Assembly: GCA_965116225.1 (NCBI GenBank)
Contig: OZ220495.1
Coordinates: 149,405 to 213,404 of the forward strand
DNA length: 64,000 nucleotides
DNA from: Dehalococcoidia bacterium
GTDB lineage: Bacteria; Chloroflexota; Dehalococcoidia; Bin125
Direction: 5' to 3'
Shown one piece after another: positions 26,103 to 59,666 of the stretch (positions are counted from its first letter, which is position 1; each line of letters begins with the position of its first letter). The notes under the pieces were generated by a model, which did not search any database, was not told the DNA's origin, and saw nothing but the letters and a program-made list of their open reading frames with translations. Both the position numbers and the translations under genes were made by a program.

Positions 26103-26942
26103 TCAGATCTCAGCATGCGCGCCGCGATGGCGCATGCGGGCGACGAAGACGGGCGGAATGTCGGGGAGATGAGCCCAGCTGAGGCGCATGGTCGGCTCGT
26201 CGGCGTCGCCCTCGCCGCCGTCGCTGATCGACGGTTCGCGGATGCCGTCGAGCACCCAGCCGCGGTCGAAGGCGGCGCTGAACAGCTCGGTCAGGGTTCG
26301 ATGGAAGTACGGCTGGAGGCTGGGTTGACCGACCGCGGCGATGCCGCGCTGCGCGCCCGTGTTCCGATAGCCGCTGATGCGCACGCCTGTTTCTTGGATC
26401 AGTTCGCCGTCCGGCGTCTCCATGCGCTCGGCGAACAGGCGCACGTCGGGTCCTGGATTGAAGGCGGGATGCAGGATCGAGAAGACGAACGGCGCGTTGT
26501 CGGCGAGGACGAGCGGGAGCATGTCGAACAGCGGCGTGATCTCGGCGATATCCATGAGCGCCATGTTGCAGACGACCGCGCCGAACGGCGCGCCGGCGGC
26601 GCCCGCCAGCGCGGCCAGGGCGGAACGATCAGTGGCGTCCAGGCGCATCCAGCGGATTTTGACGCCCGTGGAGCGCTGATCGGCTCGGTCGAGTTGCGCC
26701 TTCGAGCCGTCGGTCGCGGTCACCGCAACGCCGTGACCGGCGAGCTGTCGAGCGAAGGCGCCGTTGCCGCAGGCGATCTCCAATACCCTGTTCGGCAGCG
26801 GCTGGAGCAGCTCCAGGCTGGCGGGGAAGACCAGCGTTCGCTGCCAGTAGTTGCCCTCGTCGCCCTGGACCTGGTCCCAGAATTCAGCGTTCTGCTCCCA
26901 CGCCTCCAGCGATTCGTCGTTGTGTTCGGGATAGTCGATCAT
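26103..26942 (-). CDS. Class I SAM-dependent methyltransferase
   Basis: VLEIACGNGAFARQLAGHGVAVTATDGS (motif I). Start ATG 26942 (MIDYPEHND). Confidence 0.75.
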   Translation of the reverse strand: MIDYPEHNDESLEAWEQNAEFWDQVQGDEGNYWQRTLVFPASLELLQPLPNRVLEIACGNGAFARQLAGHGVAVTATDGSKAQLDRADQRSTGVKIRWMRLDATDRSALAALAGAAGAPFGAVVCNMALMDIAEITPLFDMLPLVLADNAPFVFSILHPAFNPGPDVRLFAERMETPDGELIQETGVRISGYRNTGAQRGIAAVGQPSLQPYFHRTLTELFSAAFDRGWVLDGIREPSISDGGEGDADEPTMRLSWAHLPDIPPVFVARMRHRGAHAEI

Positions 26943-27028
26943 GGCGAACCGCGCTCGTTGATACCGTAAGCGCAAAACCAGACCGTAATGAGGCCGCGCC
27001 GCGGGCTGCGGCGGCTGCTCGCCTCGGC

Positions 27029-28125: not shown

Positions 28126-28635
28126 ATGGATTTCGACGACCGAGCCTTCCGCAACGCGTTGGGCATGTTCCCCAGCGGCGTCACCGTGATCACGACCGGC
28201 ACGGCCCCAAACTTCGTTGGCATGACGGCGCAGTCGTTCTCCTCGCTATCGCTCGATCCGCCGCTGGTGCTGGTCTGCGTCGACAAGCGCGCCAGCGTGT
28301 TGCCCCTGCTCAGGGAAACCGGCGCCTACACCGTCAACATTTTGCCCGACACGGCGATGGACACGTCGAACTTCTTCGCCAGCAGCAAGCGACCGCCGCC
28401 GCCGCATCAGTTCGACGAACATGCGCACCAGCTGGGCCATACCGGCCAGCCGCGACTCGCGCAGGCGACGATGGTCTTCGACTGCCGCATCCACTCGCTG
28501 CTGGACGGCGGCGACCACGAGATCATCGTGGGCGAAGTGCAGGCGTTCGAGCGGCAGTCGGACGACGAGCCGATCCTGTTCTACGGCGGCGACTATCGCA
28601 AGCTGGCCCCGCCTGATCCGTCGATGAGCTGGTAG
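28126..28635 (+). CDS. Flavin reductase domain protein (HpaC-like)
   Basis: ATG 28126. Flavin-reductase motifs (FRNALGMFPSGVTVITT, MTAQSFSSLSLDPPLVLVCV). Confidence 0.75.
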   Translation: MDFDDRAFRNALGMFPSGVTVITTGTAPNFVGMTAQSFSSLSLDPPLVLVCVDKRASVLPLLRETGAYTVNILPDTAMDTSNFFASSKRPPPPHQFDEHAHQLGHTGQPRLAQATMVFDCRIHSLLDGGDHEIIVGEVQAFERQSDDEPILFYGGDYRKLAPPDPSMSW

Positions 28636-28677: not shown

Positions 28678-29298
28678 ATGACGGTCCCAGGCAAAATCGG
28701 ATTGGCGCTCACGGCGACAGCGCTGGCGCTCGGCGCGATCGGATTCGCGCTGGGGCAGAGCCTCAGCGGCACGGAAGACGTGCGGATCGCCGCCAGGAAA
28801 CTGGCCGACGGCAAGATCGAATTCGCGCTGGAACAGGATGGCCAGCGCATCCTGCCGCGCTCGCGCTTCTTCCCCGCCAGCGCCCAGGTCGATCGATGGC
28901 TCAGATCGTCTCCGGTAAGTATCGACGTTGAAGCAATCCTGGCAGAGCGAATCCGCGAAACGGAGCAACAAGAGGCCATGCAGAGCAGCCGCTCGCTGTC
29001 CGGCAGCGGCGACGCTTATCAGTCCGCCGGTCATTTCGCCGCCGGGCACTATGTCTGCATAGCTGAGGTGAGCGAAAATGACAGTGGATATGGCAGCGGA
29101 CTCTTCGCCGTCACCTCATACGGCGAGGATGGTTCCTATGGTGCCTTGCACGTCAACGAGATCGAACACTCCTATCGCGCCACAACGCGTTTGATGGTTG
29201 GATCGGGATGGTCCGCCGATGTCCCGGTTGGAGAAGTGTTCTTCGATGTGGCCGCGGCGCCCCAGGGACGTTGGTCAATCGTCTGTACGCGACAGTAG
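28678..29298 (+). CDS. Secreted hypothetical protein
   Basis: Signal peptide (MTVPGKIGLALTATALALGAIGFALGQS). Confidence 0.55.
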   Translation: MTVPGKIGLALTATALALGAIGFALGQSLSGTEDVRIAARKLADGKIEFALEQDGQRILPRSRFFPASAQVDRWLRSSPVSIDVEAILAERIRETEQQEAMQSSRSLSGSGDAYQSAGHFAAGHYVCIAEVSENDSGYGSGLFAVTSYGEDGSYGALHVNEIEHSYRATTRLMVGSGWSADVPVGEVFFDVAAAPQGRWSIVCTRQ

Positions 29299-29389: not shown

Positions 29390-29660
29390 ACGCCCTCGAA
29401 TTGGACGGCGGCGAGCCCGAGATCAGCGTGGGCGAGGCGCGGGCGCGAGTCGGGCGACGAGCCGATCCCGTTCTACGGCGACGGCGCTGACGATCAGCCC
29501 GATCGGATTCGCGCTTGGTCAGAGCATCAGCGGCACGGGCGGATCGAATTCGGCCTGTGGCAGGACGGGACGGTCCTGCGGCCCGACGCTAGGTTCTGCC
29601 CCGCAAACGCCCAGTCTCGGCAAGTGCTTGCGCTCGTCGCCAATCGAGGTCGCCGCTGAA
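29390..29660 (+). pseudogene. Decayed duplicate of 28490-28930 (3' end of the flavin reductase plus 5' end of the secreted protein)
   Basis: Roughly 70-80% identical by eye; the reading frames are disrupted. Confidence 0.5.
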
Positions 29661-29915
29661 GCAAGACCATGACAAGACCCTGACAGGATCATGACATACA
29701 CCACATACACCGCCCCAGCGCGTTGGTGGCGAGCGACCGTATCGCAACTCCGACGCCCGGTTCGCGCGGCGATATCATCCACCGAGCGACCGGGCTGCCA
29801 GGCCAATCGGCCACTGGAATCGCCAATCGAGGTACAGAGAACAGATAGCGCTGCCGCGATGGCCGGAGCTCGTGCTTGGTAGCCGATAGCCGAATACCGC
29901 CACAACGGCATCGAG

Positions 29916-29927
29916 CCCCCCCCCCCC
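29916..29927 (+). repeat. C12 homopolymer immediately upstream of TATATT, 37 nt before the DinB-like start
   Basis: tcgagCCCCCCCCCCCCatatattcaacc...ATG(29965). Confidence 0.7.
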
Positions 29928-29964
29928 CATATATTCAACCGACATCCCCGACCTGGACTCCGCG

Positions 29965-30573
29965 ATGACCGACGATAATGACGCGCCGATTTCAACACCG
30001 CAGACAACCCGCGACATGCGCGCGCAGGGAATGCCTGAGCGACCGCTGCTGGCGACCGATCCGCCGCTGCCCGCCGACGACTTCGCGCCCGCGCTCTGGG
30101 TTCCGCTGACGCGCGCGTTGCGCGCGCGGCGGCGGCTGATCCGCATGGCCGAGTCGCTGCCGGCCGCGCAGTGGTTGCGCCAGTCGGCGGCGCCGAATTG
30201 GTCGCGGCGCGACCTGCTCGCCCACCTGGCCGCCTCGGATCGGCGCTACCACGACGCGCTGATCGCCGCCCTCAACCAGGCGCCGCTCGAGAATTGGCGA
30301 CCCGACCCGGCCCAGCCAGGGCCCGATCTGGATCGCGCCAACGCGCTGGGCGCCGGGCGCTATGCAGGTCAGTCGGTCGAGCGGTTGGCGGCGCATCTGC
30401 GGGCCGGAGCCGACAAATCGGTCACGCTCCTGGCGGCCTTGAGCGAGGAACAGGTGCTCATGCGAATGGGCTTCGCCGGCAACGCCCTCTCGCTGCTGGA
30501 AGCATGGGCGTCGCACGATAACGATCACGCCGACGACATCATCAACGGACCCAGAATGATGCGCACCCTCTGA
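29965..30573 (+). CDS. DinB/YfiT-like (mycothiol maleylpyruvate isomerase N-terminal domain-like) protein
   Basis: WSRRDLLAHLAASDRRYHDALIAAL, then H-rich helical segments. Confidence 0.5.
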   Translation: MTDDNDAPISTPQTTRDMRAQGMPERPLLATDPPLPADDFAPALWVPLTRALRARRRLIRMAESLPAAQWLRQSAAPNWSRRDLLAHLAASDRRYHDALIAALNQAPLENWRPDPAQPGPDLDRANALGAGRYAGQSVERLAAHLRAGADKSVTLLAALSEEQVLMRMGFAGNALSLLEAWASHDNDHADDIINGPRMMRTL

Positions 30574-30607
30574 CGCCGCTCGCGACTCTCGTCACCGCAT
30601 CGTCTCT

Positions 30608-30795
30608 CTCAGCCTTACTTCCATCGAACCCTGACCGAACTCCTCAGCGACGCCGTCAACCGCGGGTGGGTGGTTCGACGGCACCCGCGAACCGTCGAAC
30701 ACAGACGGCGGTGAGGGCGATGCCGACAATCGCCATCGGCCGGGCCCACTTCCTCGACACACCACCAGTCCTCGGCACCTACCTCCGCCATCGCG
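30608..30795 (+). pseudogene. Frameshifted remnant of the C-terminus of a SAM-methyltransferase paralogue (homologous to the 26103-26290 gene end)
   Basis: PYFHRTLTEL...GGEGDAD... matches PYFHRTLTELFSAAFDRGWVLDGIREPSISDGGEGDADEP. No upstream gene body is present. Confidence 0.55.
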
Positions 30796-30802
30796 GCTGA
30801 CC

Positions 30803-32428
30803 TCAGTCCAGTTCCGGTTTTTGTCCTACCCATCCAATTACGGTCTTCTTTTCGTTTCTATCGTAGCGGAAATAAATTCGGACAACTCGATTCGCACTTC
30901 CGCCTCCCAGCCTCGCATGTAGATCATATACATCTATATCCTTGCTCGCAGGGTTGCGAAAAGTACGCTTCTGACGTCTCGTATCACTTTTACGCACACC
31001 GGAGCTTTCAGGAGCAACATTTACACCTTGCTCAGAGAACCAATCAATGGTACGCTTCCCAATATTACCATTCAACTCGATCATCGTTGCTGCATATTTG
31101 TCCAATACCATAAACGTACGAAGGATTTTCTTCGGTGGCCCCGCAGATGGATCGAGCCCTTTTACACCATCATCCACATCCATTCCAAATGCGAGCCTCT
31201 TGTACTCTCGGTTAGCTATATCTATAGCTTCGCTTACGCTTTTAGGAGAATGATCTGGTGCTTTCTTTTGATCGCGTTCCGATCGCACTTGATCGAGTTC
31301 CTCAAGCAAACTATCACATCTGTCTTGCAAGTCATTTTGAGAGTTAGATTTTTCACTCAGTTCCTGTTGGATGCGACGCAATTCTTCTCCGTGTGATTCC
31401 TTAAGCTGAATTATTTGCGCTTCCAGTTTTTTGTTTTCGTCTTCGAGGTAGTTGATCCATTCTTCACCCTGAAGGTTCTCAAGTCGCTCACTTTTGTATG
31501 CTTCGGTAACAGACTGGATGATCTGCGGGTCAGGTAACGTCGCTGCTTCGGCAAATATCGCCGTCTTGATCTCGCGCTGTGTATTGTCGAGGGCATCTTC
31601 TGCTTCCTTCCCCCAGAGTTTCACATGATGAGGCCAATACCGATGGAATTGCGGCTCGTCTGTACCTGGGCGTATCGGCCAGTATATGCGGATTGCTCCA
31701 GAGAAGCAGCTCCACTCGCGACCGACTAAATCACTTAGCTCCCATGCCCCCGCTACGTCGAGGTGAGCGACATGTGCTACTCCGAAGAGATCGTCTTGGA
31801 AGGAACGGAGGACTCGGTCAGGAGGGAACGGTGAGGGATAATTGTTTGAGGAAATAACGACGATAGGAAGAGTACGGCTTTCATCCCAGATGCTCTCTTG
31901 AAGCAGAAGAGCTCCAGTATCCCCGAAGTAAACTGAGTGATTGCCCTGCACAGATGTGTTTCCAGCTTTCCACTGGTGTGCGGTACCTATCTCCCGCACT
32001 ATCCTGGGGCATTTCAGATCAAGCCCAGGTCTTGGAGTAACTGCGTACTGATCGGCAATCACTTCGGCAATCAATTGACAGCGCGCAGAGAGTACGAGCC
32101 TGTTGTTGCCAGAGGCAATTTTAAGATCTGTTCGGATCGTCGATCCTGAGTCTCCATAAGGATGAGTGAGCTCTAGACTGAGCAGTTTATGAGCCTGGTC
32201 GTCGTGAGTGAGACTGTCGACGGACAGAGACAATGTTCCTTCACGTCCATCACGAAGAATGATGGTTTTTAAGCTCAGGGGTTCTGAATCACCAGTAAAG
32301 TCAAACCGGTCTTTTGCTTTCCGATCTACCCATGCAGATGTCATCTTCATGTATTGATCAAATCGATCAAAAGCCTCAGTAGGCTCTGTCGTTTCAGCTT
32401 GTAGTGAGTAGGCGAGGTAGTTCGTCAT
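30803..32428 (-). CDS. Orphan 541-aa protein in an AT-rich island: N-terminal globular domain, central coiled coil, C-terminal RelE/ParE-like strand motif
   Basis: The 30.8-32.45 kb region is clearly lower in GC than its flanks (estimated by eye at roughly 45% against a ~68% background). Coiled-coil segment LEAQIIQLKESHGEELRRIQQELSEK. C-terminal RVVRIYFRYDRNEKKTVIGWVGQK. No recognisable family. Confidence 0.6.
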   Translation of the reverse strand: MTNYLAYSLQAETTEPTEAFDRFDQYMKMTSAWVDRKAKDRFDFTGDSEPLSLKTIILRDGREGTLSLSVDSLTHDDQAHKLLSLELTHPYGDSGSTIRTDLKIASGNNRLVLSARCQLIAEVIADQYAVTPRPGLDLKCPRIVREIGTAHQWKAGNTSVQGNHSVYFGDTGALLLQESIWDESRTLPIVVISSNNYPSPFPPDRVLRSFQDDLFGVAHVAHLDVAGAWELSDLVGREWSCFSGAIRIYWPIRPGTDEPQFHRYWPHHVKLWGKEAEDALDNTQREIKTAIFAEAATLPDPQIIQSVTEAYKSERLENLQGEEWINYLEDENKKLEAQIIQLKESHGEELRRIQQELSEKSNSQNDLQDRCDSLLEELDQVRSERDQKKAPDHSPKSVSEAIDIANREYKRLAFGMDVDDGVKGLDPSAGPPKKILRTFMVLDKYAATMIELNGNIGKRTIDWFSEQGVNVAPESSGVRKSDTRRQKRTFRNPASKDIDVYDLHARLGGGSANRVVRIYFRYDRNEKKTVIGWVGQKPELD

Positions 32429-33099
32429 TGCTGTTGGCTCCTCGACAGGGCTTAGGGCGCTCCGGCGCGCCGCTCATCGGGTGGGTAGCGGCTTGCGAGG
32501 CATACAATAGGAGGTTGAGCACAGAAGATCAAGAGTGATCCCAGCGGGCCGACGCGATGAGATCACGCAGGATATTATCCGCGCGCCACCCCGGCATCTC
32601 CGCGCACGCGGAATCTCGCTCCCGCGCGGTTGACTGTCTCGCCTCCGCTACGCCTCTGCTGTAGTGTCCGCAGACGGCCGAACCCCGCATCAAGCCGACG
32701 ACCCCATGCGCCAGGAACGACATCAACGCCAATATGGCATCATCGACAGCCAAGGCCGACAAGGCCGGATCGACCACCCGTCACCCCCAATCGCCCCAAA
32801 TCGGTAACAGCGTCTCCCGTTGTGTGGCATTCCGACGCCGAAACGCCGCCCTGGCCGCGTTTGGTCGTCTCCGCCATCACGCTAATTTCCTTCCACCTCA
32901 ACGCGCTGCAAGCCCACTCCGGCAACACCGTCACCGAATCCGCTATCGCCCCATCCATCGCCGAAGCCAACTCAGACAAGACCGCCATCGCCCTCGGCGA
33001 AGCGGCCGCCCGCCGGCGGGTTGCAAATCCGTCCGATGGGCACGGGCGGCGGTTGGGGAGGGGATGGCGTCCAGGCGGGCGGAACCGAGGATGCGAGTT

Positions 33100-33999
33100 T
33101 CAGTGCTCACCCTCTGCTGAGCAGTCCGTTGCGACGGTGATGATCGCCTCGGCCACTGCGTCGGGGCGGCGCATGGGGATGAAGTGGTCCGAGTCCTCGA
33201 CCGCCCGCTCAAACGCGTTGGGAAACACATCGGTCACCTGCTGAGCGGTCGGCGAGCCGTGGCCTTGGGCAGCGCCGGCGCGCAGGATCAGGGTTGGTTG
33301 CCGGACGCGAGCCAGATCGGGCCACGGATCGACGGTCGGCGCATGCTCGAAGCACCAGGCCTCCACCGTCGGATCGCATGCCAGTTCCCACTCGCCCAGC
33401 CTGTTTGTCGGGTTGAGCCCGTAGCGGACATAGCGCTCGACCGCCTCGCGCGTCCAGTGCGTGAACGCGCCGCGACCGATCAGGGACTCCGCCATCTCCT
33501 GCGGGTCGCTCCAGATGCGCCGGCGCTTGCGCGCCAACTCGGCAAGGTCGCCGGGCGCTGTCGGCGGCATCGATCCGCGAGGATTGATCAACACGGGATC
33601 GATCAGCGCCAGCGACTCGATTCGGTCGCTGACGGCTGCGGCGATGGCGCAGACGCAGCCGCCCATCGAGTGGCCGGCGGCGACCACATCCGTCAAGTCC
33701 CGCTGTTCGAGCCAGGCGCTCAGATCGGCCGCCATCTCGCGCCAGTCCGCGCCCGCCTTATCGGATGGCGCCTGCGAAGCGCCGTGACCACGCATGTCGA
33801 GTGCGAACACGCGCCAGTCTTCGGGTAGCAAGCGAACCACATCGTCCCATGTCCGGGCGTGAAAGCCGGTGGCGTGAATCAGGACGGCCGAACGGGCGGG
33901 TTCGGCCGCGGCCGGCCACTCCCAGACCCGCAGGTCATAGCCGCGGACGCGCTCAGTCGATGCAGTGGGCAGCGATCGGTGGTTCATGGACGGATGCAC
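33100..33999 (-). CDS. Alpha/beta-fold hydrolase
   Basis: Nucleophile elbow (GHSMGG), then HATGFHARTWDD. Confidence 0.8.
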   Translation of the reverse strand: MHPSMNHRSLPTASTERVRGYDLRVWEWPAAAEPARSAVLIHATGFHARTWDDVVRLLPEDWRVFALDMRGHGASQAPSDKAGADWREMAADLSAWLEQRDLTDVVAAGHSMGGCVCAIAAAVSDRIESLALIDPVLINPRGSMPPTAPGDLAELARKRRRIWSDPQEMAESLIGRGAFTHWTREAVERYVRYGLNPTNRLGEWELACDPTVEAWCFEHAPTVDPWPDLARVRQPTLILRAGAAQGHGSPTAQQVTDVFPNAFERAVEDSDHFIPMRRPDAVAEAIITVATDCSAEGEH

Positions 34000-36014
34000 T
34001 CCCTACCGGACTCGGGATACGGAAATCCTCGTGCTCTCCAGCAGGCGAAGTGCGCATAGAATTCCTCAGTACCGATACCCCAGAATTGGCGGAAAACCTG
34101 TTCGCCAGCACGAGCCCGCGGGCTCGCGACACTCCTATCCTCCACTTCCGGGGCGAGCCGCGACTGCACGGACAGCGCGCGATAGTATTCGGCGACCGAC
34201 TTGCCGTCGCTGTACGCCTCAAGCCACTCCGTCGCCAGTGCGCCGAGAGCATACTCGGGCGAACCCGAGCTGTTCTCGAGCCTTGGATCATCGAGTGCGA
34301 TATCGTAGCCGCGGGCGGCGGTTACAAGGGGTTCTCTGGCATCAGACCAGGCTTCGTCGAATGCGCCGGCCGCGTACTTGAGGGCGACATACTCGGCAGA
34401 ACCCTCCAGCATGAACGGCGGATAGCTGTTCAGGACGTTGTATCGCTCGGGAAACGACCAGGCGCTTTGCAAAACGTGAAAGTACTCGTGAGCGTATGTG
34501 CCGCCATCCAACAGGCACAGCGCGCCAATCCGTATGGCCGCCGAGGCAAGGCCGCAACCGGGATCACGCGAATCGACTCGCCATGCGACTCCGTCGGCGA
34601 GAAACCCGAATGCATCAACGAACCATTGCTCCACATCGGCGACGATTTGTCGAATCTCATCAGCCCGCGCTTCCGCTAAAGTACCCAAAATAATCACGCG
34701 ATCCGTCTCTGTCGAAAACGGCGGCGCCACCATACGGCGATACGACTCGACACCCGAATAGAACTCATCCCGCGATAGCCCAAATGCGTGATCGAGCGCG
34801 GTCACTGTCACACCGCTGGCTGCGAGGTGATCGAAATATCGGATCAGGCTCTGATCGCCGAATGTCTCCGCAAGGTAGCGAATGACGAGGAATTGCAGTG
34901 GGCGTATGTCGAAGCGCGCATCAACGAGACCGAGCTCCGCCAGGGGAACTGTGACGGATCGCGCCTCAGACAAGTACGCGGAAGCTTGATCACGCTCTCG
35001 ATCAGGCCCAAGCGATGCAAAGCCAACGTATGCGGTATATCCATACCAAAGGCTGTAATCAAGCAGCGTGCGCAGGCGCGCTGCTCTGACCGACTCGACG
35101 GCGACCAGCGTACCTGCGATTTTGGCGATATGGTCGACGCAACTACGGTTGACCAACATCAGCGAATAGGTACCTCCCACGCCGGGACATCCACCGCTTG
35201 GTCTAGCGCTCGGGAATCCCGGCGTTCGTCCATGGTCGGTCAGCAGCGTGTGCGCATCATCCCAATCCTGGGCGACGAAGATGGTATATCGATCCTGCAC
35301 CGCGCCAAAGCGTTCAGCGAGGAGCCGTTCCGCACGACGCACCTCATCGGCGACGCGTTCACGAACTGCTTCGGGCAGCTCGGGCGAAAAGTGGATCACG
35401 CCAGGCGGCTCGACGGGGCGGTTCCAGCTCTGGTCGGCAAGAAGATACAGCGCCATGCGGTCGCCGTACTTCACCGTGGGCGCTGAAGGTGTTAACTCTC
35501 GGACCTGAAGATCGCGGACCGGATACGCATCCCAGGACTGGTTGTCCGCGTTCCACAGCATCACCCCGAATACGTGGGCAAGGTCCAGGCCCCGTAACGC
35601 ATCCGCGAGGGGGACATCATCAGCGCCAAGCCAGCGAAGGACGTTCGCCCCAGTTTGGAGATCCACTCGACCGACAGCAGGTATCGACACACCGCCGTCC
35701 ACCATCGCCACCGTCAGCGTTACTATCGCCTGACCCGGGCCGGTCTCCCTCACCAAAGCCTCGGCCGCCTTGCCGTTAACCACGAACACCACGCCGTCGG
35801 ATTGATCCCGATCTACATCGATGTACCAACTGCCGTCCGCAAACACCGTCGTCGAGCCCAACTCGTCGCCCGAACCAGCGCGCGCGGCAATCTCGTCACC
35901 CGCCGTCGCCCCCGTCCCGTAAAACCGGTACGGCGGCTCCTGCTGCGCCGATGCCATCGCCAGCGCCGACGCCGCCAACGCAATGATCGTCAAGGTTGCG
36001 GCGAGTGGTCGCAT
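33984..36014 (-). CDS. Secreted putative zinc metallopeptidase (HExxH)
   Basis: Signal peptide (MRPLAATLTIIALAASALAMASAQQ). Single HEYFH motif (AHEYFHVLQ). Confidence 0.5.
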   Translation of the reverse strand: MRPLAATLTIIALAASALAMASAQQEPPYRFYGTGATAGDEIAARAGSGDELGSTTVFADGSWYIDVDRDQSDGVVFVVNGKAAEALVRETGPGQAIVTLTVAMVDGGVSIPAVGRVDLQTGANVLRWLGADDVPLADALRGLDLAHVFGVMLWNADNQSWDAYPVRDLQVRELTPSAPTVKYGDRMALYLLADQSWNRPVEPPGVIHFSPELPEAVRERVADEVRRAERLLAERFGAVQDRYTIFVAQDWDDAHTLLTDHGRTPGFPSARPSGGCPGVGGTYSLMLVNRSCVDHIAKIAGTLVAVESVRAARLRTLLDYSLWYGYTAYVGFASLGPDRERDQASAYLSEARSVTVPLAELGLVDARFDIRPLQFLVIRYLAETFGDQSLIRYFDHLAASGVTVTALDHAFGLSRDEFYSGVESYRRMVAPPFSTETDRVIILGTLAEARADEIRQIVADVEQWFVDAFGFLADGVAWRVDSRDPGCGLASAAIRIGALCLLDGGTYAHEYFHVLQSAWSFPERYNVLNSYPPFMLEGSAEYVALKYAAGAFDEAWSDAREPLVTAARGYDIALDDPRLENSSGSPEYALGALATEWLEAYSDGKSVAEYYRALSVQSRLAPEVEDRSVASPRARAGEQVFRQFWGIGTEEFYAHFACWRARGFPYPESGRECIRP

Positions 36015-58195: not shown

Positions 58196-58408
58196 ATGGC
58201 GGGCGACTCGGGCAAGGCAGGCAACGAGCCGAACTGGGACAATCAGACGATCTGGACGGGCGACAACCTCGAGATCATGCGGGGGATGAACTCGGCGTCG
58301 GTGGATTTGATCTACCTCGATCCGCCGTTCAACTCGAACAAGGACTATCTTACTCATTCATTGTCAGCCTATTCCGTAACTGGCAGAGACTTCCTTGTTG
58401 AATCGTAA
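58196..58408 (+). pseudogene. N-terminal stub (about 65 aa) of a beta-class DNA methyltransferase
   Basis: Retains target-region/motif IV (WTGDNLEIMRGMNSASVDLIYLDPPFNSNKDY), then terminates. AT-richer DNA follows. Confidence 0.6.
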
Positions 58409-58966
58409 CGGATCATGCCAATAACATCCAATACAGCTACCGTTATACCGATCGTTGCCTTTGAAATGGCTCACGGCATACCCGAGTCGTTTCGCATCGA
58501 ACCTATTATCGGTCTCCCTGCACTCTTTACAATGCTGTCGTTTAGCAAGATTGACCGCTTTCGAAAGCGGCTGGAAATCGTCAATCGTTACCAGGTTCGC
58601 GTCTGACAGGCGCGGATCATCACGGCGGCCATCCTTATGATCGACTTCAATTTGAGCGCCAACGGCCAGCACGGCGCAACGACGAGACGCCACTTCCCGC
58701 TTGATGTGCGACGGGATTGGTTTCAGGATGGGAGACTTCTTCTTTCCTTGAAGCTCTACACTCACGATCTTATTCCCGCTCTTGTTTCGGCGGACATTGT
58801 ATTCAGCGGCGAGCGCTCCATCATCTCGACACCAACTTCCTCCATTGCCTAGCTGTAACCTTGCATATCTGCCGACAAATTCGGTGATCGGCACGGTGCG
58901 ACTAAAGCCGTCTTCGTCAGGCTCGGCAAGTTCGAGGAACAGTTGCTTAAGTGTAATTCGGGCCAT
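58364..58966 (-). CDS. Putative restriction endonuclease (HNH/Zn-finger-like) partnered with the adjacent methyltransferase
   Basis: Lower-GC gene. His/Cys-rich catalytic-looking segment (EVDHKDG...CKECRETDN...CIGCYWHD). Start overlaps the methyltransferase stop by about 20 nt. Confidence 0.45.
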   Translation of the reverse strand: MARITLKQLFLELAEPDEDGFSRTVPITEFVGRYARLQLGNGGSWCRDDGALAAEYNVRRNKSGNKIVSVELQGKKKSPILKPIPSHIKREVASRRCAVLAVGAQIEVDHKDGRRDDPRLSDANLVTIDDFQPLSKAVNLAKRQHCKECRETDNRFDAKRLGYAVSHFKGNDRYNGSCIGCYWHDPLRFNKEVSASYGIG

Positions 58967-59666
58967 CGTCGATTCTCCGCCTAGCCGCCAAGACGTATTG
59001 TTGATCGATATCACAGCCAGCGAAACGTCGTCCCAGATTCAGCGCGGCGACCGCCGTGGTGCCGCTCCCGACAAAGGGATCGATCACCAGGTTACCCGGC
59101 TTGCTGTGTTTATCGATCAATTCCTCGAACAGCCCTAATGGCTTTTGAGTGGGGTGAATTCGGCGTCCGTTATGACGGGGAATAGGCATCGAGTAGACGC
59201 CGTTGTCGTAACTGCTGTTGAAGGTCGGCTTGCCACCTTTGACGCAATATACCGCTGTTTCTCGGCTGTTCGACAGATACGTCACCTTACTGTTGAGCGG
59301 TACTGGGTTCGTCTTTTGCCAAACGATTTGGCGGAACATTCTAAATCCGGCCGCCTCAAGCGCGCAACGGAGTTCGCCGATCTTCCAGAGGTCATACCAG
59401 ACGATTGCCACTCCACCCATGCGCAACACTCGGTACAGCCCAGCGGCGAAATCGCCCAGATCGATCTCGGCGTGATCCCATTCGCCAAAGTCCATCGAAA
59501 CGGCGAATCGTTGGACACCGTTGCGCACGTTGGCAAAGCCGGTCTCCCGACTGATCGCATAGGGCGGATCGGTGAGCGCAAGATCAACGGATCTCGGAGG
59601 GATACCGACCAAGAAGTCTCGATAATCCGTGCATTCGAGCACTGTCACGCGGTTGATCCTCCGCAA
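58947..59666 (-). CDS. DNA methyltransferase (N6-adenine/N4-cytosine, DPPY type)
   Basis: Motif IV (LALTDPPYAI), motif I-like (DPFVGSGTTAVAA), and RIHPTQKP. Confidence 0.8.
   Translation of the reverse strand: MRRINRVTVLECTDYRDFLVGIPPRSVDLALTDPPYAISRETGFANVRNGVQRFAVSMDFGEWDHAEIDLGDFAAGLYRVLRMGGVAIVWYDLWKIGELRCALEAAGFRMFRQIVWQKTNPVPLNSKVTYLSNSRETAVYCVKGGKPTFNSSYDNGVYSMPIPRHNGRRIHPTQKPLGLFEELIDKHSKPGNLVIDPFVGSGTTAVAALNLGRRFAGCDIDQQYVLAARRRIDDGPNYT

Follow-up and report, generated by a model that had tools for sequence, protein, structure and literature searches.

An AT-rich gene within a lineage-specific segment

The window analysed here, a 64,000-nucleotide stretch of DNA from a Dehalococcoidia bacterium, carries on its minus strand an intact gene (30803-32428) that starts with an ATG codon and encodes a protein of 541 aa, with the coordinates, strand and length given in the original prediction. 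A Shine-Dalgarno-like GAGGAG, read from the sequence, is found on the same strand 9 nt 5' of the ATG (32438-32443). The gene has a GC content of 48.1% versus 65.3% for the whole window, close to the approximately 45% and 68% previously estimated by eye, and the dip stands when computed precisely. In sliding windows of 1626 bp, for instance, GC has a mean of 0.653 (SD 0.034) and its lowest value, 0.482, at 30801, with the gene lying 5 SD under the mean. In 60-bp windows, GC falls from 0.70 to 0.45 at 30800 and rises from 0.50 to 0.73 at 32440, and because the steps sit exactly at the gene's stop and start codons, the dip is coextensive with the coding sequence. GC at third codon positions (GC3) is 0.45 in the gene, compared to 0.81-0.88 in four neighbouring genes, and 0.67 in an adjoining 676-aa ORF that is lineage-specific. 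A scan for sigma-70 promoters returned zero sites, terminator-like matches occurred at chance level only, and an Rfam search of 29500-34000 yielded one sub-threshold chance match.

The gene is part of a lineage-specific segment of 2517 bp (30576-33092) that stands in place of the spacer found between the DinB-family (DinB_2) and alpha/beta-hydrolase genes of the closest related genome, L001. That spacer is ~110 bp long, and the gap between the two genes measures 128 bp in L001 versus 2.5 kb in the window. Homology detected by blastn against L001 stops at 30575 and restarts at 33112. When the L001 spacer was aligned locally, the breaks fell at 30575 and 33093, and the segment contained no remnant of that spacer. 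The flanking genes are core, syntenic and also present in L001, and the segment is absent at the syntenic L001 site. The GC content of 48% against 65%, the low GC3, and the absence from L001 all support horizontal acquisition, in keeping with the earlier view of a compositionally foreign single-gene insertion. The lack of an integrase, tRNA or repeat boundary was likewise borne out, as the window is devoid of tRNA genes, the scan of neighbouring ORFs turned up neither integrase nor transposase, and the repeats around the island, among them a 13-nt pair (30783 and 32869), are just 12-25 nt and at chance level. The neighbours scanned (~26.1-36.9 kb) encode metabolic functions or secreted proteins and have no match in PADLOC.

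The upstream part of the segment (32429-33092, 664 bp) has a host-like GC content of about 0.63-0.66 and a weakly gene-like codon-position GC of 0.64/0.54/0.75. With blastn and tblastx it matched none of the loci retrieved and nothing else in the window. It includes an ORF of 82 aa (32529-32777) on the minus strand, 100 bp upstream of the 541-aa gene. Neither this ORF nor the remainder of the 664 bp has a match in Pfam or PADLOC.

Relationship to HEC-07 and domain architecture

The 541-aa protein had been described as an orphan that matched no recognised system, a description overturned by profile searches. The PADLOC HEC-07 model PDLC04161 aligns residues 138-534 with profile positions 141-544 of 553 (E=3.3e-28; 73% of the protein), leaving the N-terminal 137 residues uncovered, and three more HEC-07 models (3e-7 to 5e-4) extend back to residue 84. 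A second PADLOC match is to NsnC of the Menshen system (PDLC03912, E=3.2e-17, residues 359-537). The guess of a defence or toxin gene was thus right in kind. A profile search recovered 685 cluster representatives (50% identity) at E<=1e-30, all of about 500-570 aa and collinear, and HEC-07 models were matched by each of the 50 aligned relatives that were scanned. Identity to most family members is 16-28%, with one representative, P0007, at 39%. A word-indexed homologue search identified four relatives, a repeat with the subclade alignment added none, and the subclade alignment had no match among genome and metagenome contigs.

HEC-07 is Hma-embedded candidate 07 of the Payne et al. 2024 preprint, represented in PADLOC-DB v2 by PDLC04158-04161. 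By the preprint's account, HEC-07 was one of seven tested systems that reduced phage plaquing, and did so as a single gene; the protein concerned, WP_039244286.1 of Pseudomonas aeruginosa NCTC13717, was expressed in E. coli, and is described as having an AdoMetDC-like N-terminal domain, a thioredoxin-like domain without CxxC, and a RelE-like C-terminus (bioRxiv 10.1101/2024.01.29.577857). The same preprint presents embedding in Hma systems as the context in which HEC-07 was defined, and a distant family member (P0006, locus L008) is found in such an Hma-type locus, with a helicase, a DUF1156 methylase, a DUF499 ATPase, and an adjoining DUF3644 gene. The gene studied here shares with HEC-07 its single-gene form, a length of ~540 aa, a significant collinear HMM match, a thioredoxin-like middle domain without CxxC, and a RelE-like C-terminal domain with conserved His and Arg residues. 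It differs in residing outside an Hma system or recognisable defence island, and in its host, which belongs to the Chloroflexota and is not a proteobacterium.

We consider it likely that the gene encodes a horizontally acquired, stand-alone HEC-07 single-gene anti-phage protein, a reading that includes the mechanism and origin proposed below. Such a gene would extend a recently described and mechanistically uncharacterised family to the Chloroflexota, in the form of a gene that stands alone rather than within a defence island. It opens no new category of system, HEC-07 having already been published as a single-gene anti-phage system.

Domain calls are based on an AF2 model of the full-length protein (pLDDT 91.3). 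In the model, the N-terminal domain (residues 1-120; 32069-32428, minus strand) is a single helix on a curved antiparallel beta-sheet, for which Foldseek found weak matches to PsbP, START/Bet v 1 and TBP-like folds. The AdoMetDC-like fold that the preprint assigns to this part of HEC-07 was not reproduced among these weak matches, and the domain is presumed to be sensory or regulatory. The middle domain (residues 140-250; 31679-32011, minus strand) is a thioredoxin-like alpha/beta domain by Foldseek (probability 0.95-0.99, TMt 0.5-0.6). Both a CxxC motif and a Walker A motif are absent from the 541-aa sequence, the latter in agreement with the original prediction. The best-conserved residues outside of the RNase domain are P141, R185, P188, G216/A218/V220, G244 and P251. 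Among the viral structures of BFVD, matches were to thioredoxin-type domains only, with no full-length viral relative.

A helical stalk follows (residues 274-385; 31274-31609, minus strand), which holds one 64-residue helix (322-385) where a long coiled coil had been proposed. The stalk is the source of all the weak coiled-coil-type matches in Pfam, NCBIfam and PHROGs, and searches of these databases and of PDB sequences with the 541 aa gave insignificant matches of this type only. Kinship with SMC proteins, Lamassu LmuB or BREX BrxC was considered on the basis of such matches and rejected. The same matches, together with surroundings that lack a defence island, could be taken to indicate a cellular role other than defence, with the protein acting as a stress-responsive RNase or regulator, or as a structural coiled-coil protein, that merely shares domains with defence proteins. 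We regard such a role as very improbable, given that the SMC-related, BrxC and LmuB matches fall short of significance and lie within the helix only, that the gene is foreign in composition and absent from the closest relative, and that the protein matches a defence family along its full length.

The C-terminal module (residues 398-541; 30806-31237, minus strand) consists of a helical subdomain and a RelE/BECR-fold beta-sheet carrying H504, R517 and K537, and has a pLDDT of 94.4 in a model of the domain. The suggestion of a RelE/ParE-type fold at the C-terminus was upheld, since RelE, HigB, YoeB, PfiT and RelE2 occupy the top Foldseek ranks. The scores are modest (E-values 0.05-2, TMt <=0.61), and the fold call thus rests on the consistency of the match list and on homology to NsnC, which spans the C-terminal ~180 aa. 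A PDB search with a profile of the domain returned nothing. In NsnC, the C-terminal domain (PB-BECR1) has an H-R-H triad at the positions of the H-D-H residues of YafQ (PMC12065111). The present protein shares with NsnC the BECR/RelE-like fold and an H-R-(H/K) triad at positions comparable to those in YafQ. Its N-terminal part bears no relation to the inPIN domain that NsnC carries (PMC12065111), and neither an NsnA (DUF262/ParB) nor an NsnB (ABC ATPase plus DUF3696) gene flanks the ORF. Whereas the RNase of Menshen is controlled by an ATPase, the module here is fused to presumed sensor domains.

The predicted fold of the last ~100 residues also resembles that of type II toxins of the RelE/ParE superfamily (RelE, YoeB, HigB, YafQ and HP0892), and by analogy RNA cleavage leading to translation arrest would be expected. 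Sequence similarity to these toxins, however, is below detection in Pfam or PDB sequence searches, and the domain is joined to further domains totalling about 400 aa. The RelE-family fold is compatible with the gene being the toxin of a toxin-antitoxin or addiction-type selfish module that stabilises itself or neighbouring DNA, the antitoxin being unrecognised, such as the 82-aa ORF positioned upstream on the same strand, or intramolecular. In addition, family members at loci L008 and L009 are directly preceded by MqsA/HTH-like and SecB-like genes, a layout reminiscent of toxin-antitoxin-chaperone systems. Yet no antitoxin gene was identified: the 82-aa ORF, which is the sole small ORF next to the gene, matches no antitoxin family in Pfam or PADLOC, has a weak coding signature, and is missing upstream of the homologues in two related contigs, L004 and L005. 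The large conserved N-terminal domains are unlike classical 90-aa RelE toxins, and the tested HEC-07, as the preprint describes it, functions as a single gene and gives protection from phage. An addiction-type module is therefore unlikely.

Catalytic residues and proposed function

The H-R-H triad of the family reads H504-R517-K537 in the 541-aa protein. In the family alignment, the column of H504 is His in 96 of 96 sequences and that of R517 is Arg in 95 of 96, whereas position 537, occupied by Lys here, is His in 93 of 96; in the tested HEC-07 protein, the C-terminal His is given as H543. Substitution of a near-invariant His means that catalytic competence is not guaranteed, and raises the question of whether the gene is a catalytically dead or decaying relic, either a non-functional cassette or a non-catalytic binder. 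The clearly degraded state of the related L004 copy, and the adjoining pseudogene fragment of a methyltransferase, would fit with decay. On the other hand, the 541-codon ORF is intact in AT-rich sequence that is prone to stop codons, and the other invariant residues of the family are all retained. Furthermore, Lys recurs at position 537 in 7 of the 149 top family representatives, including the closest relative, and in several separate representatives, P0007 among them, it is accompanied by a conserved G-x-K-P motif, which favours a functional variant that is tolerated. In E. coli RelE itself, Lys, Arg and Tyr serve instead of His. A relic is thus quite unlikely, and the recurrence of Lys marks a natural variant within the family that gives no ground for excluding the protein from it. 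The uninterrupted ORF, the good Shine-Dalgarno sequence and the retained invariant residues are counted as intactness. The recurrent His-to-Lys change at a presumed catalytic position would also offer natural mutations with which to test the RelE-like RNase mechanism proposed here.

For the anti-phage protein, the most likely function, by inference, would be that of an RNase triggered by infection that shuts down translation. In the uninfected cell, the N-terminal domains, stalk-mediated oligomerisation, or both, might keep the RNase domain inactive. The RNase could then be released by a phage-derived cue that the N-terminal and thioredoxin-like domains sense, and would cut RNA, most likely mRNA and possibly on the ribosome as do RelE-family toxins. 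Cleavage would result in translation arrest, and the infection would be aborted.

The methyltransferase stump and the origin of the gene

Just beyond the 3' end of the gene lies the 3' stump of a SAM-dependent methyltransferase gene (30610-30800, plus strand), corresponding to residues 221-285 and the stop codon, frameshifted, and with a host-like GC content of 66%. A tblastn search with the 290-aa paralogue encoded at 26103-26975 located the stump at 30610-30798, in three frames with two frameshifts, confirming the methyltransferase remnant that had been reported on this flank. The stump is convergent with the HEC-07-like gene, its TGA (30798-30800) being 2 bp from the stop codon of that gene. 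It is 79.8% identical to the resident methyltransferase gene and 78.1% identical to the L001 orthologue, versus 86.6% between the latter two, and has thus diverged further from both than they have from each other.

One explanation for this arrangement, that the island truncated a local methyltransferase gene, was rejected because the missing 5' part would overlap the conserved DinB_2 gene and because the syntenic L001 site has no methyltransferase. The stump is most likely not the leftover of a gene disrupted by the island, and instead came together with it. In the L004 and L005 contigs, the homologues are likewise convergent on the 3' end of the same methyltransferase gene. Both this arrangement and the divergence of the stump add to the case for horizontal acquisition. 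The convergence, taken with the short gap in L001, suggests that the gene probably came from a related Chloroflexota lineage that carried the methyltransferase stump.

Arrival would have occurred without an integrase, probably by recombination with DNA of that related lineage. In the donor lineage, homologues would be situated convergently beside a conserved SAM-methyltransferase gene, such that the 190-bp stump was carried along, and the landing site would be the junction of the DinB-family (DinB_2) and hydrolase genes, which would be prone to rearrangement. If so, the stump represents an unusually clear trace of a single defence gene moving between related genomes with no dedicated mobility gene.

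A further extension, conceivable though rather doubtful, is that the subclade with the Lys variant, comprising this gene, P0007 and the decayed copy of L004, constitutes a Chloroflexota-specific HEC-07 lineage that moves without an integrase by targeting, or recombining through, the 3' end of the SAM-methyltransferase gene, and in which the H-R-K triad possibly reflects RNase chemistry or regulation altered relative to the H-R-H majority. Were this true, the stump would be a footprint of homology-assisted cassette transfer of single defence genes. In the case of the L004 copy, an IS5-type transposase lies upstream, the N-terminus is absent, and the catalytic strands are gone.

An AT-rich gene of the HEC-07 family

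The single AT-rich gene of the original prediction is an ORF of 541 aa with an ATG start on the minus strand (30803..32428), as described. Recomputed precisely, its GC content is 48.1% versus 65.3% for the whole window, and the minimum among all 1626-bp windows (0.482 at 30801) lies about 5 sd under the mean of 0.653 (sd 0.034), which marks the composition as foreign. In 60-bp steps, GC falls from 0.70 to 0.45 at 30800 and climbs from 0.50 to 0.73 at 32440, indicating that the dip comprises the coding sequence and nothing beyond. GC3 is 0.45, versus 0.81-0.88 in four neighbouring genes; that of the adjacent lineage-specific 676-aa ORF is 0.67. The ORF is intact, a Shine-Dalgarno sequence (GAGGAG) can be read 9 nt 5' of the ATG, and the gene is missing from L001, the locus of the closest related genome. 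Neither a Walker A motif nor a CxxC was found in the protein, no tRNA is present anywhere in the window, and the island is surrounded by short repeats at a level expected by chance, in agreement with the predicted lack of a Walker box and of tRNA or repeat boundaries. A 13-nt imperfect direct repeat (30783-30795, CTCCGCCATCGCG; 32869-32881, CTCCGCCATCACG; 2086 bp apart) brackets the gene, but as one among many similar short matches it is probably due to chance.

Sequence searches of Pfam, NCBIfam, PHROGs and the PDB returned insignificant matches only, to the helical region of the protein. The PADLOC-DB model PDLC04161 for HEC-07 (Hma-embedded candidate 07, a single-gene anti-phage family) matches aa 138-534 over profile positions 141-544 of 553 (E=3.3e-28), with weaker matches to three more HEC-07 models, and models for NsnC, the Menshen effector, cover the C-terminal third (best E=3.2e-17, aa 359-537). 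A word-indexed search yielded four relatives only; a HMMER profile search that took in 1.84 billion cluster representatives yielded 5717 at E<=1e-3, of which 685 reached E<=1e-30. Among the 5717, the top 150 are nearly all 500-570 aa long and mostly align end-to-end or from about profile position 90, and HEC-07 models are matched by all of the aligned members scanned (50/50). Thus, the protein is not the unrecognisable orphan it had been taken for, but a new, divergent, stand-alone member of a known defence family; the claim of novelty fails, the guess at a defence or toxin function was a good one, and a housekeeping or structural role finds no support. Two features are of modest interest, namely an H-R-K triad and a hitch-hiking methyltransferase stump.

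Payne et al. (bioRxiv 10.1101/2024.01.29.577857) defined HEC-07 and HEC-08 from the Hma-embedded context. Of the nine systems they tested, seven lowered plaquing in E. coli; among these was HEC-07, a single-gene candidate whose tested representative came from Pseudomonas aeruginosa NCTC13717. A context of this Hma type surrounds the distant family member P0006, which in locus L008 lies inside a helicase/DUF1156-methylase/DUF499-ATPase locus with an adjoining DUF3644 gene.

The methyltransferase stump and the origin of the island

The predicted remnant of a methyltransferase paralogue was recovered by tblastn with the protein of the resident SAM-methyltransferase gene (26103-26975), as aa 221-285 spread over three frames at 30610-30798 on the plus strand. 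The stump is convergent with the HEC-07-like ORF, with 2 bp between the stop codons. Its identity is 79.8% to the resident gene and 78.1% to that of L001, whereas the latter two are 86.6% identical over the same columns, which shows that the stump was not copied from the resident gene recently. The resident gene itself has a weak PADLOC mad2 match (E=8e-12, methyltransferase domain only). Since its orthologues are syntenic in L001 and lie beside HEC-07 homologues in the related loci L004 and L005, this match probably reflects a generic similarity between domains and not a function in defence.

L001 retains the order methyltransferase, DAP_DH_C-domain gene, flavin reductase, DinB-family (DinB_2), hydrolase and enoyl-CoA hydratase, with 128 bp separating the DinB-family and hydrolase genes. 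Homology with the window ends at 30575 and restarts at about 33093, leaving 2517 bp without an L001 counterpart. The 664 bp of this region upstream of the HEC-07-like gene have host-like GC and no match in the loci compared or the rest of the window; an 82-aa same-strand ORF within them has no family match in Pfam or PADLOC. The subclade of the HEC-07-like gene has only two other members, and both lie in this kind of neighbourhood. In the case of L004 (74-2855), a 39%-identical homologue is convergent toward an intact methyltransferase orthologue, followed by flavin-reductase and DinB-family genes. This homologue is a pseudogene: it matches aa 72-490, the first ~70 codons are missing, the catalytic strands are lost, and its immediate upstream neighbours are ORFs for an IS5-type transposase (DUF4096, DDE_Tnp_1). 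In L005, the C-terminus of the same methyltransferase is found in convergent orientation ~50 bp past the intact member, P0007, and is identical to ...PDIPPVFVARMRHR at 11 of 14 residues. The most parsimonious interpretation is that, in related genomes, the usual place of this HEC-07 lineage is downstream of that methyltransferase, and that in the window lineage the gene would have been copied in along with 190 bp of the donor methyltransferase 3' end.

Predicted architecture, triad and mode of action

An AF2 model built with a 96-sequence alignment (pLDDT 91.3) predicts an N-domain in which one helix packs against a curved beta-sheet (aa 1-120), an alpha/beta middle domain (aa 140-250), a helical region (aa 274-385) that includes a single 64-residue helix (322-385), and a C-terminal part (aa 398-541) in which an antiparallel sheet comes after a helical subdomain. 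In a Foldseek search of the PDB, the modelled middle domain is assigned to thioredoxins (probability 0.95-0.99), and the N-domain has no more than weak PsbP, START and TBP-like matches. In the sections of the preprint available, HEC-07 is described as having an AdoMetDC-like N-domain, a thioredoxin-like second domain without CxxC, and a C-terminal domain like the RelE-family toxin HP0892 with a conserved histidine, H543; no RNase assay on any HEC-07 is mentioned in that account (bioRxiv 10.1101/2024.01.29.577857). AdoMetDC was not recovered by Foldseek against the PDB for the N-domain here. The protein also matches the C-domain of NsnC, PB-BECR1 of the Menshen system, a BECR/RelE-superfamily RNase domain whose H-R-H triad occupies the positions of YafQ's H-D-H (PMC12065111).

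P141, R185, H504 and G535 are invariant in the 96-sequence alignment, and at least 90% of the sequences keep R517, F520, G532, G244, P251 and a G216/A218/V220 motif; at the sequence level, H504 and R517 are thus conserved. The column after the last strand holds His in 93/96 sequences and Lys (K537) in the 541-aa protein and P0007, its closest full-length relative (39% identity), so that the H-R-H triad reads H504-R517-K537 here. E. coli RelE uses Lys, Arg and Tyr, not His. This His-to-Lys change, together with the decayed L004 copy, points toward the gene being a dead relic; however, the ORF is intact, the invariant residues are kept, and Lys recurs across the family, being present at position 537 in 7 of the best 149 representatives inside a conserved G-x-K-P motif (one Asp and one Glu also occur). 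Such recurrence suggests that K537 is probably a tolerated variant, and not a sign of decay.

From the HEC-07 family and knowledge of RelE/BECR domains, we infer that the C-domain would act as an RNase kept in check by the N-terminal domains, the helical stalk or both. The RNase would be released once the conserved N-terminal and thioredoxin-like part senses a cue from a phage, and RNA cleavage would then arrest translation and abort infection.

As a rival explanation, the RelE fold suggests a toxin-antitoxin or addiction role, as does the arrangement upstream of P0006, although no antitoxin is identifiable at the window locus. P0006 is directly preceded by MqsA/HTH_31-like (172-aa) and SecB-like (152-aa) genes (L008 9050-11569; L009 537-3056), each either directly adjoining the next gene or sharing a few bases with it, in a layout resembling that of toxin-antitoxin-chaperone (TAC) modules. 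The Hma-type locus of L008 contains this entire set, beside the DUF3644 (HEC-08-like) gene. Given this layout, some HEC-07 proteins may be controlled in trans.

Variable segments around the landing site

The island lies between the DinB-family (DinB_2) and hydrolase genes, at a junction that is an inversion breakpoint within the clade. The DinB-family gene adjoins the hydrolase in L001 and the window, whereas in L004 and L007 the flavin reductase and DinB-family gene adjoin Peptidase_S49 and Rieske genes. Several long metagenome contigs, including five of 2.4-3.5 Mb, carry orthologues of the flanking hydrolase (76-85% identity); some sources label these contigs as Chloroflexi/Chloroflexota MAGs. 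Downstream of the hydrolase, L002, L006 and L007 vary, with CoA-transferases, a 395-aa gene without assignment, or ParD-like and radical-SAM genes.

Two further lineage-specific insertions flank the landing site. The segment 28636-30036, between the flavin-reductase and DinB-family genes, is missing from L001 and contains a 206-aa ORF (28678-29298) with a signal-peptide-like N-terminus. A decayed tandem copy follows, in which 29402-29483 matches the flavin-reductase 3' part (28502-28591) at 81% identity and is succeeded by a frameshifted copy of the ORF's N-terminus. The 676-aa ORF (33984-36014; lower GC, 0.57-0.63), also with a signal-peptide-like N-terminus and with no Pfam or PADLOC match, separates the hydrolase gene from that of enoyl-CoA hydratase, two genes with 6 bp between them in L001, and is the third strain-specific insertion within 8 kb.

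A second low-GC islet (58364-59666, ~0.55) lies between two genes that, from their translations alone, are purB-like and purC-like. It carries two overlapping genes on the minus strand, one for a restriction endonuclease of the IceA/NlaIII type (Pfam ICEA, E=3e-48), the other for an N6_N4 DNA methyltransferase (E=2e-33; PADLOC MTase_II, E=3e-46). Together they look like a type II restriction-modification pair gained by horizontal transfer.
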